Below are positions 1,900-3,944 of a stretch of DNA of 4,454 nt, piece after piece. This DNA comes from a virus. Lineage: Duplodnaviria > Heunggongvirae > Uroviricota > Caudoviricetes. The translations under genes and the position numbers were made by a program. The stretch's first letter is position 1, and each line of letters starts with the position of its first letter. Location of the stretch: IMG/VR virus record IMGVR_UViG_2645727555_000025, positions 1 through 4,454 of that record. One strand, 5' to 3'. The notes beneath the pieces are model-generated. The model worked only from the letters and a program-made list of their open reading frames with translations, did not search any database and was not told where the DNA came from.

Positions 1900-2319
1900 T
1901 AGATAAGTACAAACTATTCATAAAGTGAATTGTAAGTGCTAAGATCTGATAGTTTCCAGTCGTAGACTGGAGGCTCGACCTGATGGGTGGGGGTAAGCGT
2001 CACTGGCGTCAGGTTTAAAAAAGCTCACTACCAGCGTAGAACCGGTGCCGTATAGGTGTCGGGGAAGGGGGAACCAAAGTGAGCAGAGACAAGGGTCACT
2101 TTATGATTGTCGAGTCTGGGGTGTTTCGAGAGGTTGAATCCAGTACTCCCCTTCATAAAGTGTGGGAAGATCTCGGTTCTGGGGTGCTGTCATCCATAAC
2201 TTCCCAAGTCTAAGCTGGCAGTAGACTTAGACCATAGCTTTTCAGGTTATGAAACGACCAGGTTGGTGAGGAATTTTATACTCACCTCCCTGGGAGAGTA
2301 TTACCTGAAAAGACAACCT

Positions 2320-2357
2320 CTCACTTCGTTCGAGGTGAACTTCACTCACTTCGTTCG
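2320..2357. repeat. Two perfect 13-bp direct repeats CTCACTTCGTTCG (2320-2332 and 2345-2357) flanking the small palindrome GTGAAC-TTCAC
   Basis: Read directly; about 125 bp upstream of the RNase H start codon. Confidence 0.6.
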
Positions 2358-2418
2358 TTCAGTTCAGGTTTATAAAAACCTGTTCTGGGAAGTAATTTGT
2401 TTATTTTAATAATTATTA

Positions 2419-2443
2419 ACACGCACGCGTGTGCGCACGCGCG
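2419..2443. promoter_or_regulatory. 25-nt perfectly alternating purine-pyrimidine tract (ACACGCACGCGTGTGCGCACGCGCG) with nested palindromes, in the RNase H promoter/5' UTR
   Basis: Strict Pu/Py alternation across 2419-2443; palindromes CACGCGTG (2424-2431) and GTGCGCAC (2431-2438); preceded by an AT-rich stretch (2393-2418) and followed by SD AGGAG (2471-2475). Confidence 0.5.
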
Positions 2444-2480
2444 AGGAAAAATCGGCGCGGCGCTTGATTCAGGAGTTTAT

Positions 2481-3071
2481 ATGACGACGAAGACACCAGC
2501 CCGATCGCAAGCAAAAACTCGCAAAAAAGACAAAAACAAAAATTCTCCCCGCACCAATCCCACAACGCCTGTCGTAGAGTTCAATCCCCAGCTTAAAACC
2601 GTGAAAATCTTTAGTGATGGCTCTTGCCTTAAAAATCCGGGTGGCCCGGGCGGTTACGGTATCGTTCTCCAGTATCGTGGTGAGGAACGCGAGTTCTCAG
2701 ATGGTTTTCATAGCACCACCAATAACCGCATGGAGATGATGGGGGCACTTATCGGGCTGGAGCGTTTGAAATATCCATGCAACGTTATTTTGCACTCTGA
2801 TAGCCAGTATCTGAAAAACGGCATGACACAGTGGATGAAATGGTGGAAACGCAATGGATGGATGACTTCTGACAAAAAACCGGTAAAGAATGTTGATCTG
2901 TGGAAGCGTCTGGATGAGGCCGCAAGTCGACATAATGTTCGCTGGAAGTGGGTTAAAGGTCACGCCGGGCATCGTGAAAATGAAATATGTGATCGACTCG
3001 CGAAGATCGCAGCTTTTTCAGCAGCAGATATGCCTCACAAGAAAGATATTGGTTTTGTTTATAACAAATAG
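2481..3071 (+). CDS. Ribonuclease HI homolog (RNase H type 1 fold) with a ~40-aa basic, low-complexity N-terminal extension
   Basis: 196 aa. From residue ~40 it aligns with E. coli RNase HI as I remember it: catalytic D (IFSDGSC), E (NNRMEMM), D (HSDSQY), H (KGHAGH), D (ICDRLA) and the GYG motif are all present. N-terminal 40 residues rich in K/R/T/P. Strong SD AGGAG 5 nt before ATG 2481, preferred over the ORF-track TTG at 2397. Confidence 0.85.
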
Positions 3072-3168
3072 TAAGTAAGTGTTTACCTATCATTTTAAAT
3101 CATGTATCTTATCGGCGTCAGGATGACAATGTGTCGGTAAGACACAGTTCCAGGATGGAACGAGAAAG

Positions 3169-3190
3169 GCGGCTGGCAATCGCCAGCCGC
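3169..3190 (+). terminator. GC-rich hairpin (9-bp stem, 4-nt loop), possible terminator/attenuator after the RNase H gene
   Basis: GCGGCTGGC-AATC-GCCAGCCGC followed by AACTCTTTCT, a weak U-tract. Confidence 0.4.
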
Positions 3191-3219: not shown

Positions 3220-3714
3220 ATGGCACGTCAAACCTATTTCACTTCTGTAACTAAACGTCCTCGTTCTTTACGTCAAATTTTGGCCGAATTATTTAGCGGT
3301 CGTGTTATGTCACGTCTTGATGAACTAGAGACTACCGTTCGGTTGCTGAATGAACGTTTAGATAATCAAGCGTCAGTTGTTGCGAACGTGGGGGCGATTG
3401 TTGCCTCTGGTTCTTCACGCGAAGCGAAAAATGCACGGCCTTTAGTGAAGGAGAAAAACAACAAGGACAGTTCGAATGGAAAATTTTCAAAGAAAGAGGC
3501 TGAAACCAATGGCCTACGTTCTCATTATAGTTTCACTGGCGACGGTAGCCGTTCCAGCCGGTCAGAGCCTTTTGATGCCGGATTCATCCATCACCACACC
3601 TTCGTCGACGACAATTACCACCACTCCAGTGGAGCGTCCTGTCACTCTGGATGGGATGGCGGTGGATGCGATACCTCAAGTTCATCCAGTTACTCAGGAT
3701 CATGCTGTGACTAA
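3220..3714 (+). CDS. Hypothetical protein, predicted coiled-coil N-terminal half; C-terminal third is low-complexity (His/Ser/Cys/Gly) and may not be translated as drawn
   Basis: ATG 3220 with GGAG (3211-3214) at 5-nt spacing; first ~85 codons look like genuine coding sequence (amphipathic LDELETTVRLLNERLDN). From ~3480 the +1 frame looks more gene-like than this frame. Confidence 0.4.
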   Translation: MARQTYFTSVTKRPRSLRQILAELFSGRVMSRLDELETTVRLLNERLDNQASVVANVGAIVASGSSREAKNARPLVKEKNNKDSSNGKFSKKEAETNGLRSHYSFTGDGSRSSRSEPFDAGFIHHHTFVDDNYHHSSGASCHSGWDGGGCDTSSSSSYSGSCCD

Positions 3715-3727
3715 GGCGGTTGTATGA
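3476..3727 (+). CDS. Small secreted or membrane-anchored Thr/Pro-rich protein (83 aa) with N-terminal signal-peptide-like segment
   Basis: ATG 3476 preceded by AAGGA (3463-3467); basic n-region MENFQRKRLKP, hydrophobic h-region MAYVLIIVSLATVAV, then PAGQS and a T/S/P-rich region; codon choice looks typical for enterobacterial genes; stop TGA overlaps the next ATG. Confidence 0.5.
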   Translation: MENFQRKRLKPMAYVLIIVSLATVAVPAGQSLLMPDSSITTPSSTTITTTPVERPVTLDGMAVDAIPQVHPVTQDHAVTKAVV

Positions 3728-3912
3728 ACTGGTTTTCAAATCACTTTGGAAAAATTTGGCTGGCAATTCTTGCCCTCATGGCCGCCGGTTGGGTATCGAA
3801 CATTATAAAACTTGTTTGCTCTGGCGATCTCCAGTTTCAGGCTGGCATGACCTTGGCTCGTGTAGTTGGGATTTTTATTTTTCCAGTCGGTTCGGTACTT
3901 GGTTATTTCTGA
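3724..3912 (+). CDS. Small membrane protein (62 aa, two predicted transmembrane helices)
   Basis: ATG 3724 overlaps the upstream stop (ATGA), SD-like AAGGCGG upstream; hydrophobic segments IWLAILALMAAGWV and LARVVGIFIFPVGSVLGYF. Preferred over the W/C-rich ORF at 3720-3950 in another frame. Confidence 0.5.
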   Translation: MNWFSNHFGKIWLAILALMAAGWVSNIIKLVCSGDLQFQAGMTLARVVGIFIFPVGSVLGYF

Positions 3913-3944
3913 CGGTTGTTAGTGCATATGCATTGACCGTCTTT
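3911..3944 (+). terminator. Hairpin (GACGGT / ACCGTC stem around the palindrome TGCATATGCA) followed by CTTT; possible terminator
   Basis: Arms 3911-3916 and 3936-3941; inner palindrome 3923-3932; short T-run 3942-3944. Confidence 0.35.

Follow-up and report, generated by a model that had tools for sequence, protein, structure and literature searches.

The window analysed here, i.e., the whole 4,454-nt stretch of viral DNA (record IMGVR_UViG_2645727555_000025), was found to contain orf76, the gene for a 76-aa protein, at 1669-1899 and rnhA, the gene for RNase HI, at 2481-3071 on the plus strand, with a region of 581 bp (1900-2480) between them. This region very probably holds the gene for a large structured non-coding RNA (ncRNA). 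As an earlier note on the same DNA had stated, it contained no open reading frame (ORF) of 60 aa or more on either strand, the longest ones encoding 48, 44, and 42 aa, and its GC content was not low (0.43-0.55 across 1900-2300). The neighbouring genes were found to be all co-oriented and included nrdB, thyA (thymidylate synthase), dfr (dihydrofolate reductase), an ATPase gene, a 3′-5′ exonuclease gene, and a Dam-type methylase gene (889-1482, on the same strand as its neighbours), followed by orf76. The product of orf76 matched phrog_5343 from end to end, and rnhA, with its own start codon at 2481, was followed by small genes of no assigned role.

The internal repeats that the earlier note had listed were recovered, with slips of one or two bases in its coordinates. 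The nucleotides TCTGGGGTG were found twice (2115-2123 and 2178-2186; chance expectation 0.01), as was the 13-nt direct repeat CTCACTTCGTTCG (2320-2332 and 2345-2357), and two copies of either were obtained in 0 of 200 shuffles. AGATCT was present at 1942-1947 and 2168-2173, and the TTCGAG-like motifs were placed as TTCGAGAGGTTGAA at 2125-2138 and TTCGAGGTGAA at 2329-2339. GTAGACT does occur twice, at 2221-2227 and at 1962-1968, the latter copy having been given one base off as 1961-1967. Both of the proposed hairpins were real and were supported by compensatory changes; that at 2208-2232 stands, and that at 1956-1970 was redrawn as 1953-1973. The extent of 1900-2480 had to be trimmed to a functional unit of ~1952-2400, the rest being made up of an operator-like motif, a candidate promoter, a spacer, and the ribosome-binding region of rnhA. 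The plus strand of 1940-2480 was found to fold at -200.5 kcal/mol, against -161.3 ± 6.1 kcal/mol for dinucleotide shuffles (z = -6.44), and the reverse strand at -167.1 kcal/mol (z = -6.02).

The 581-bp region was found to be 100% identical to pECOH89, a plasmid of E. coli H89. It matched 685-687 plasmids in PLSDB, mostly of ~110 kb, of which 675 of 685 were typed as non-mobilizable, and the hosts were Klebsiella, Escherichia, Enterobacter, Salmonella, Citrobacter, and Cronobacter. It also matched 12 phage records, Salmonella phage SSU5 among them at 92%. Because of these matches the window was assigned to an SSU5/pHCM2-type phage-plasmid. The RNA was present in ~690 of 72,556 PLSDB plasmids and in ~230 of 5,426 complete E. 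coli genomes, and its range known so far is the SSU5-like phage-plasmids of Enterobacteriaceae. For replication, pECOH89 was found to encode a primase, a DnaB-like helicase, a Pol III alpha subunit, a ligase, a 5′-3′ exonuclease, and RepB, and no lytic initiator was annotated on the pECOH89-type element.

Homologous loci were gathered via the RNase H gene, exact DNA patterns, and proteins of public collections. An 18-mer scan of genome contigs returned mostly chance matches and three real ones (two in Kluyvera, one in Buttiauxella). No comparable gap was found at distant RNase H loci (38-49% identity), and RNase H proteins of 330 aa were found in unrelated cellular contexts. One locus (L362, Logan SRR8137545) contained the window-type sequence with T in place of practically every C, which imitates a divergent homolog with a truncated RNase H; the contig was evidently assembled from bisulfite-converted reads and was for that reason left out of the homolog set. 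An E. coli chromosome (L230, CP125919.1) was found to contain a copy of the RNA that is ~73% identical, with several helices broken, and that looks degenerate. Part of a 466-nt query from this locus had matches of 99% or above in over 1000 E. coli chromosomes, so that the locus abuts or contains common chromosomal sequence.

Conservation, covariation and strand of the RNA

In relatives with a DNA identity of 74-81% for the methylase, orf76, and rnhA genes, the core of the element (1975-2395) was found to be 88.9-95.7% identical, and the spacer at 1900-1951 and the 5′ hairpin were not alignable in those same relatives. In the main clade many blocks of 20-60 nt were 100% invariant, and positions 2300-2360 were identical in 45 of 45 distinct sequences. 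The RNA has a substitution rate ~4-5 times below that of coding DNA and is under strong purifying selection; its invariant stretches include ones predicted to be unpaired.

Covariation was assessed in two alignments. The first, A4, contained 14 representatives and gave an RNAalifold structure of 145 pairs, in which 97.2% of cells were paired and 17 pairs were double-changed; column shuffles gave 5.8 ± 1.7 such pairs (0 of 500), and slid controls, with the partners moved by 1-3 columns, gave 2-7. The second, A5, was A4 with the addition of the divergent lineage L359 (~68% identical; L363 is close to it), in which 95.9% of cells were paired across 145 predicted pairs and 33 pairs were double-changed; the shuffles gave 9.8 ± 2.2 (0 of 500) and the slid controls 4-11. 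The covariation analysis that the earlier note had proposed thus gave a signal above both kinds of control. At least one compensatory pair was found in each of 11 helices. When the A4 cells were read on the plus strand 97.2% of them paired, against 86.6% on the minus strand, which fits worse because many conserved G-U pairs turn into A-C; this preference indicates that the RNA is read from the plus strand.

The loop GAGAGGUUG (2128-2136) was found to be the exact 9-nt complement of CAACCUCUC (2314-2322), with 98.9% of cells paired, and in the L228 lineage a change of G2133 to U was matched by a change of C2317 to A. This compensatory event points to a probable pseudoknot between the two segments. 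No covariation support was found in A5 for the outer stem 2238-2251/2299-2312 or for the RNAalifold hairpin around the 13-nt repeat. An all-against-all column scan for further pseudoknots was given up, the signal being swamped by clade-specific substitutions.

The predicted RNA, all parts of which lie on the plus strand, was found to begin with the 5′-terminal hairpin P0 (1952-1974), containing a stem of 9-10 bp and a GUA loop. Five of the eight P0 pairs were double-changed, and the stem was retained with a different sequence in nearly every lineage. It was followed by the long hairpin P1 (1977-2015), containing a GNNAG-type loop and, as its G-rich 5′ arm, GGGUGGGGG; in this hairpin 5 of 15 pairs were double-changed, 98% of cells were paired, and several G-U pairs were invariant. 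The P2 domain (2023-2084) contained the closing helix 2023-2029/2078-2084, the inner hairpin 2042-2049/2055-2062, and the G-rich strand GGGGAAGGGGGAACC (2061-2075), the last nearly invariant overall and invariant in the main clade; three compensatory pairs were found in P2 and one in its inner hairpin.

Domain 3 (2097-2162) was found to contain the helices 2097-2106/2153-2162 and 2112-2120/2139-2148, with the loop of the probable pseudoknot at its apex. It showed three compensatory pairs, L359 having ACCAGAC/GUCUGGU in place of GUCUGGG/UCCAGUAC. The helix UGGGAAG/CUUCCCA (2163-2169/2200-2206), enclosing the hairpin 2182-2186/2191-2195, was paired in 100% of cells and contained three double-changed pairs in L359 (AGGAAGG/CCUUCCU). 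It was followed by the hairpin GUCUAAGCUGG-CAGU-AGACUUAGAC (2208-2232), with 5 of 10 pairs double-changed and 100% of cells paired, and by a long three-part hairpin of nested inverted repeats (2238-2312; 2238-2251/2299-2312, 2258-2262/2289-2293, and 2265-2270/2281-2286). The latter contained two compensatory pairs in its inner part, none among the 13 pairs of its outer stem, and loop indels of 1-2 nt.

The proposed pseudoknot partner (2314-2322) was followed by two copies of CUCACUUCGUUCG around a small hairpin, GAGG-UGAA-CUUC (2333-2344), and this repeat region (2320-2357) was 100% invariant across 45 main-clade sequences. In L359 and L363, YCGUUCG was kept twice together with GAGG-GAAA-CCUC, and the second repeat copy was partly lost. 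The 3′ hairpin (2359-2388) has a hypervariable apex, its loop and stem sequence being unlike in every lineage, and contained three double-changed pairs. The tail (2389-2419) was found to contain GAAGUAA followed by a U-rich and then a variable AT-rich part, in which the T-richness was kept and the sequence was not; in all lineages the sequence 3′ of GGGAAGUAA was U-rich, then AT-rich and variable.

Coding potential and similarity to described RNAs

Owing to length changes of 1-2 nt, 28 of 83 distinct homologs were found to lack an intact 44-aa ORF (2079-2213), and 74 of 83 lacked an intact 48-aa ORF (2263-2409) because of indels of 1-2 nt. The variable sites by codon position numbered 11/6/6 and 17/12/14, with no third-position bias, and none of seven small-ORF peptides had a match in Pfam or PHROGs. 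These results indicate that the region is non-coding. A decayed gene, which the earlier note had offered as a possibility, was rejected on the same grounds together with a lack of protein homology and a conservation above that of the intact neighbouring genes. At one locus of Buttiauxella gaviniae (L167, 5025-6188) the 44-aa frame was found fused to an SbcD-like metallophosphoesterase ORF running into the 3′ two-thirds of the RNA element. The fused protein was 387 aa long against the usual 361 aa, and its homologs ended ahead of the fused tail; the locus is a rearranged remnant with LysR and MFS genes on its flanks and without the first 100 nt of the element.

The other possibility offered there, a single-stranded-DNA promoter of the Frpo/ssi type, did not hold up either. 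The carriers were found to be almost all non-mobilizable phage-plasmids, the neighbours were phage DNA-metabolism genes (nrd, thyA, dfr, Dam methylase, and rnhA) with no conjugative leading region, and the fold was multi-branched, as opposed to the one long hairpin that rebuilds the -35 and -10 elements of an Frpo-type promoter.

The Rfam scan suggested by the earlier note was run on the whole window and on L228, L230, and L232, and no Rfam 15 family was matched even at E values up to 10; the best scores in 1960-2420 were those of miRNA models (12-17 bits, E 1.5-9). No tRNA or tmRNA was found. A group I intron was rejected, Intron_gpI not being matched in Rfam, orf76 being a complete 76-aa family, and rnhA having a start codon of its own. 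Mimicry of rRNA by the anti-Shine-Dalgarno-like CUCACCUCC and GGGGAACC was also rejected, alignment to an E. coli rrn operon scoring 23-24 against 23.4 ± 2.4 for shuffles; the anti-Shine-Dalgarno-like motif was lost in L359 and L230. A likeness of UGCCGUAUAGG to the type I-F CRISPR repeat was limited to the window's own variant and was dropped. Neither Rfam 15 nor the searchable literature was found to contain a description of this RNA, and the accessible portion of a large survey of viral csRNAs reports motifs of only 29-151 nt.

Candidate promoter, flanking motifs and the downstream slot

A candidate sigma-70 promoter was found at 1917-1945 on the plus strand, containing the -35 hexamer TTCATA (1917-1922), a 17-nt spacer, and the extended -10 element TGcTAAGAT (1937-1945). 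The extended -10 motif, which was found by a purpose-written script, is positionally conserved: in 10 of 11 lineages TGnTAnnnT preceded the invariant CTCGAC by 26-29 nt, within a spacer that is otherwise unalignable, and was itself preceded in most lineages by a TTCATA, TTTAAA, or TTTACG hexamer 16-17 nt above it. The eleventh lineage (L056) contained TTGTAGAAT, without the one-base gap after TG. The motifs of L228 and L230 were read by eye from the upstream sequence, other sites having been ranked top by the script. Transcription from this promoter would start at ~1951-1953, exactly where the P0 hairpin begins.

An operator-like motif, GATAGATAAGTACAAACTATTCATA (1899-1925), was found to contain the stop codon of orf76 and to overlap the -35 hexamer, and in relatives this copy was a near-perfect palindrome, e.g., GGTAAGTACTTACC in L036. 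The motif, ATA(A/G)GTAAGTA-N3-4-TAC(C/T)TA(T/C)CATT, of ~25 nt, was present in at least 13 copies on both strands of pECOH89 (7554, 11085, 23972, 32602, 50085, 56557/56572, 62052, 63570, 75895/75910, 90359, 94425, and 110858), almost always in short intergenic gaps and including the stop codon of the upstream gene. Within the window it was found at 1899-1925 and 3066-3095. Its appearance is that of an operator or promoter specific to the phage, which we take to be reminiscent of the 'stoperators' of mycobacteriophages.

The 3′ flank of the RNA was found to contain the alternating pyrimidine-purine tract CACGCACGCGTGTGCGCACGCGCG (2420-2443), a perfect alternation of 24 nt that is prone to form Z-DNA, followed by the GC-rich element AGGAAAAAUCGG-CGCGGCGC and the rnhA Shine-Dalgarno sequence CAGGAG (2444-2480, plus strand), which are conserved across lineages. 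An alternation of 21-27 nt was kept in all lineages including L228, with varying sequence and length. Outside the region, an inverted repeat, GCCTGCTTC...GGAAGCAGGC, around an extremely AT-rich loop of ~36 nt was found just 3′ of the methylase gene (1505-1562) and is, by its predicted pairing, a hairpin or cruciform. The leader of the gene at 3220 was found to contain two small AGGAUG-loop hairpins followed by a perfect 9-bp GC-rich hairpin (3116-3161 and 3169-3190). The AGGAUG-loop hairpins gave a weak CsrB-like match (16.8 bits, E = 0.12) and may be CsrA-binding sites.

Inserted DNA was found to interrupt rnhA, or to take the place of most of it, in 8 of 80 distinct contexts that retained a full-length RNA and an intact orf76. 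The gene next to the RNA in L359 and L363 encodes a 200-aa protein without an assigned role in place of RNase H. As the RNA stays intact where rnhA is disrupted or replaced, it is not merely an rnhA leader, and these contexts indicate that it is independent of rnhA. The rnhA locus was an insertion and replacement hotspot in the lineages L147, L280, L283, L215, L251, L278, and L167, with a recurrent insertion junction just after GAGG(A)nUCG (~2455 in the window). Several of these lineages contained the common junction ...GAGG(A)nTCGCCCATCGTAATGTCTTCAATGTGCC... followed by differing DNA, and in others rnhA was split by an insert of ~2 kb. Two genes downstream of the RNA, L359 was found to encode a protein with a Tad2-like (Thoeris anti-defence 2) domain (3605-3916; Pfam 31.6 bits, cut-off 25).

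The constant upstream partner of the RNA was orf76, and 11 of 11 fetched loci of orf76 homologs with downstream DNA contained an ORF-free gap of 520-710 nt after it. In L232 and L233 orf76 was 70% and RNase H 63% identical, and the same slot in L232 (1290-1745) was occupied by a ~450-nt element, here called type B, with z = -6.07 and no detectable sequence similarity to the window's RNA (type A). Type B lay between the orf76 homolog on one side and a tandem pair of RNase H-like genes on the other, with an AT-rich stretch of ~100 nt after it. It was found to share with type A only the 13-nt word AGGTGTCGGGGAA and a CUUCCAG.../...CUGGAAG 5′ hairpin, and a comparison of the two with nhmmer --max found nothing. 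As L232 and L233 are identical, type B gave no covariation.

Interpretation and comparison with known systems

Among the possibilities raised by the earlier note, a structured ncRNA is strongly supported by the covariation, the strand-specific G-U pairs, a conservation above that of the neighbouring genes, the element's own promoter motif, and the 5′ hairpin. We lean, if only slightly once the mechanism is counted in, towards ~1952-2400 of the plus strand being a stand-alone ncRNA gene of ~450 nt that is restricted to SSU5/pHCM2-type phage-plasmids and whose product acts through its fold. Such a stand-alone functional RNA is our best guess because it best fits the size of the element, its many helices, the probable pseudoknot, invariant stretches that are predicted to be unpaired, the slow rate of change, and the retention of the RNA despite a varying downstream gene. 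Rightward transcription would proceed from the element's own extended -10 sigma-70 promoter, which adjoins the operator-like palindrome found repeatedly in the element. A protective 5′ hairpin would open the transcript, which would fold into at least 11 helices with the probable loop-to-strand pseudoknot. The folded RNA would itself be the product, probably binding a protein or adopting a tertiary structure, and would act in trans for the early or DNA-metabolism module and not as a leader of rnhA. Transcription, the RNA ends, the action in trans, and any partner are what we infer from this arrangement.

Several points weigh against the stand-alone RNA. The sequence diversity is modest: three or four lineages account for most compensatory events, and a single such event underlies the pseudoknot. 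The promoter hexamers match at only 8 of 12 positions, below the threshold of the generic promoter scan, which missed the site for that reason. No canonical intrinsic terminator was found 3′ of the RNA and before rnhA. The longest complements of the RNA in pECOH89 were of 12-13 nt, i.e., at chance level, with none of 14 nt or more, and neither a protein partner nor an RNA target was found. The model of the orf76 protein was a generic and uninformative three-helix fold (pLDDT 78.6), and a fold search with it against PDB returned nothing significant (best E about 8); orf76 is thus not detectably Rop-like and was set aside as a Rop-like or other RNA-binding partner.

The strongest competitor, although an unlikely one, is a cis-acting long 5′ leader of an mRNA for the downstream genes (rnhA, the cargo, or the Tad2-like gene), which would serve, e.g., in processive antitermination, in 5′ stabilisation, or in translational control of the downstream transcript. 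The missing terminator makes read-through into the downstream genes possible and with it a leader for a variable downstream operon. The co-orientation of all neighbours, the variable slot with its recurrent insertion point directly downstream, the 200-aa protein followed by the Tad2-like gene in the L359 slot, and a promoter beside a recurrent operator-like motif, as at a regulated operon start, agree with a leader. However, a length of 450 nt with at least 11 helices and a rate ~4-5 times slower than that of coding sequence is far beyond what known bacterial leaders need, gene-specific sensing is implausible because the regulated gene is not conserved, and the RNA is set apart from the next ribosome-binding site by a U-rich tract and by an AT-rich spacer that varies.

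An RNA-primed replication origin, perhaps a lytic one, is improbable. In such an origin the G-rich transcript would form an R-loop at the AT-rich 2396-2419, and RNase HI, encoded next door or by the host, would cut it into a primer, as with ColE1 RNA II or the T4/T7 origins. The order of promoter, ~450-nt structured RNA with invariant G-runs (GGGUGGGGG and GGGGAAGGGGGAACC), AT-rich stretch, Z-DNA-prone tract, and rnhA would suit this, as would the element's own replication proteins beside the lack of an annotated lytic initiator. The unrelated but equally structured 450-nt type B element of L232, with its AT-rich stretch in the same slot, resembles exchangeable origin cassettes. However, the cumulative GC skew of pECOH89 was monotonic, with its only turning point near RepB and no inflection at 95.1-95.5 kb, which is a weak test given the uniform gene orientation and since a lytic origin may leave no mark. 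Neither an antisense promoter nor an RNA I-like partner was found, with no match to RNAI in Rfam; minus-strand promoter-like sites were absent from 1975-2400, and the only nearby one (1958->1929) points away. In addition, orf76 is not detectably Rop-like, the element's own rnhA is dispensable, and the G-runs are located at the 5′ end, distant from the AT-rich region. Several tests for such an origin failed, and positive support was absent.

That the region acts only at the level of DNA, through protein-binding sites, a recombination site, or iterons, with the RNA structure being incidental, is very improbable. The 20-60-nt blocks that are 100% invariant in the main clade (the 13-nt direct repeat included), the operator-like palindrome and the alternating purine-pyrimidine tract on the flanks, and the entry of cargo at a fixed junction just downstream would agree with it. 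It is disfavoured because double-stranded DNA sites would give neither the compensatory double substitutions, which keep 33 pairs and lie far beyond both controls, nor the markedly better fit of the plus strand by way of G-U pairs. A decayed protein gene or Frpo-type single-stranded-DNA promoter has a negligible chance of being right, the short 44- and 48-aa ORFs and the fusion in L167, a rearranged remnant, being outweighed by the frameshifts in many relatives, the lack of family matches, and a conservation above that of real genes, and the promoter by non-conjugative hosts and a multi-branched fold.

Returning to the stand-alone RNA, a tertiary-folded molecule fits better than a simple regulator because of the very slow evolution, the pseudoknot, and the invariant stretches predicted to be unpaired. 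It is a tentative suggestion that it belongs to a new class of large RNA with a biochemical activity of its own, i.e., a ribozyme, the core of a ribonucleoprotein, or an R-loop primer or licenser of replication. Large, complex, and slowly evolving bacterial RNAs are rare, and those that have been solved proved to be riboswitch-like devices, ribozymes, or the cores of ribonucleoproteins. Among clinical Escherichia, Klebsiella, Enterobacter, and Salmonella, phage-plasmids of the SSU5/pHCM2 type are common and carry resistance genes, e.g., CTX-M-15, and an RNA with its own activity would, if true, be a new functional RNA class on clinically widespread elements. Few stretches of the sampled region are as conserved as the RNA, and in the examined records its place was annotated as empty space and once as a hypothetical protein. 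It marks the border of a variable gene slot, which contains cargo and in one lineage an anti-defence-like gene, and so helps in the annotation of these elements; the host element is a tractable E. coli phage-plasmid, so that direct tests are feasible.

The P4 CI RNA, the P1/P7 c4 RNA, and the HK022 put RNA resemble this RNA in being promoter-proximal on a temperate, plasmid-capable element with an operator-like site adjoining, and here too related elements hold differing versions in one slot (type A in the window, type B in L232). They are, however, RNAs of 70-80 nt that act through short defined pairings or direct binding of RNA polymerase, whereas this RNA is ~6 times larger and no complementary target for it was found in pECOH89. 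ColE1 RNA II is likewise ORF-free, promoter-driven (by a candidate promoter here), highly structured, ~450-550 nt long, and endowed with G-runs, and is found on a plasmid replicon with an AT-rich stretch adjoining and RNase H at hand. Unlike in ColE1, no antisense RNA I, promoter for it, or Rop-like protein was found here, nor any sequence or Rfam similarity, and the GC skew, a weak test, gives no origin signal at this locus, the plasmid's RepB initiator is encoded elsewhere, and rnhA is dispensable. The closest likeness in kind was with ROOL, GOLLD, HEARO, raiA, and OLE, which are also several hundred nucleotides long, multi-branched, supported by covariation, and very highly conserved, are carried by mobile elements or phages, and have functions that cannot be read from the gene context. 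Their Rfam models were unmatched here even at E values up to 10, and this RNA has so far been limited to SSU5-like phage-plasmids, always after orf76 (phrog_5343); it is a new RNA family within the large orphan structured RNAs of mobile elements.

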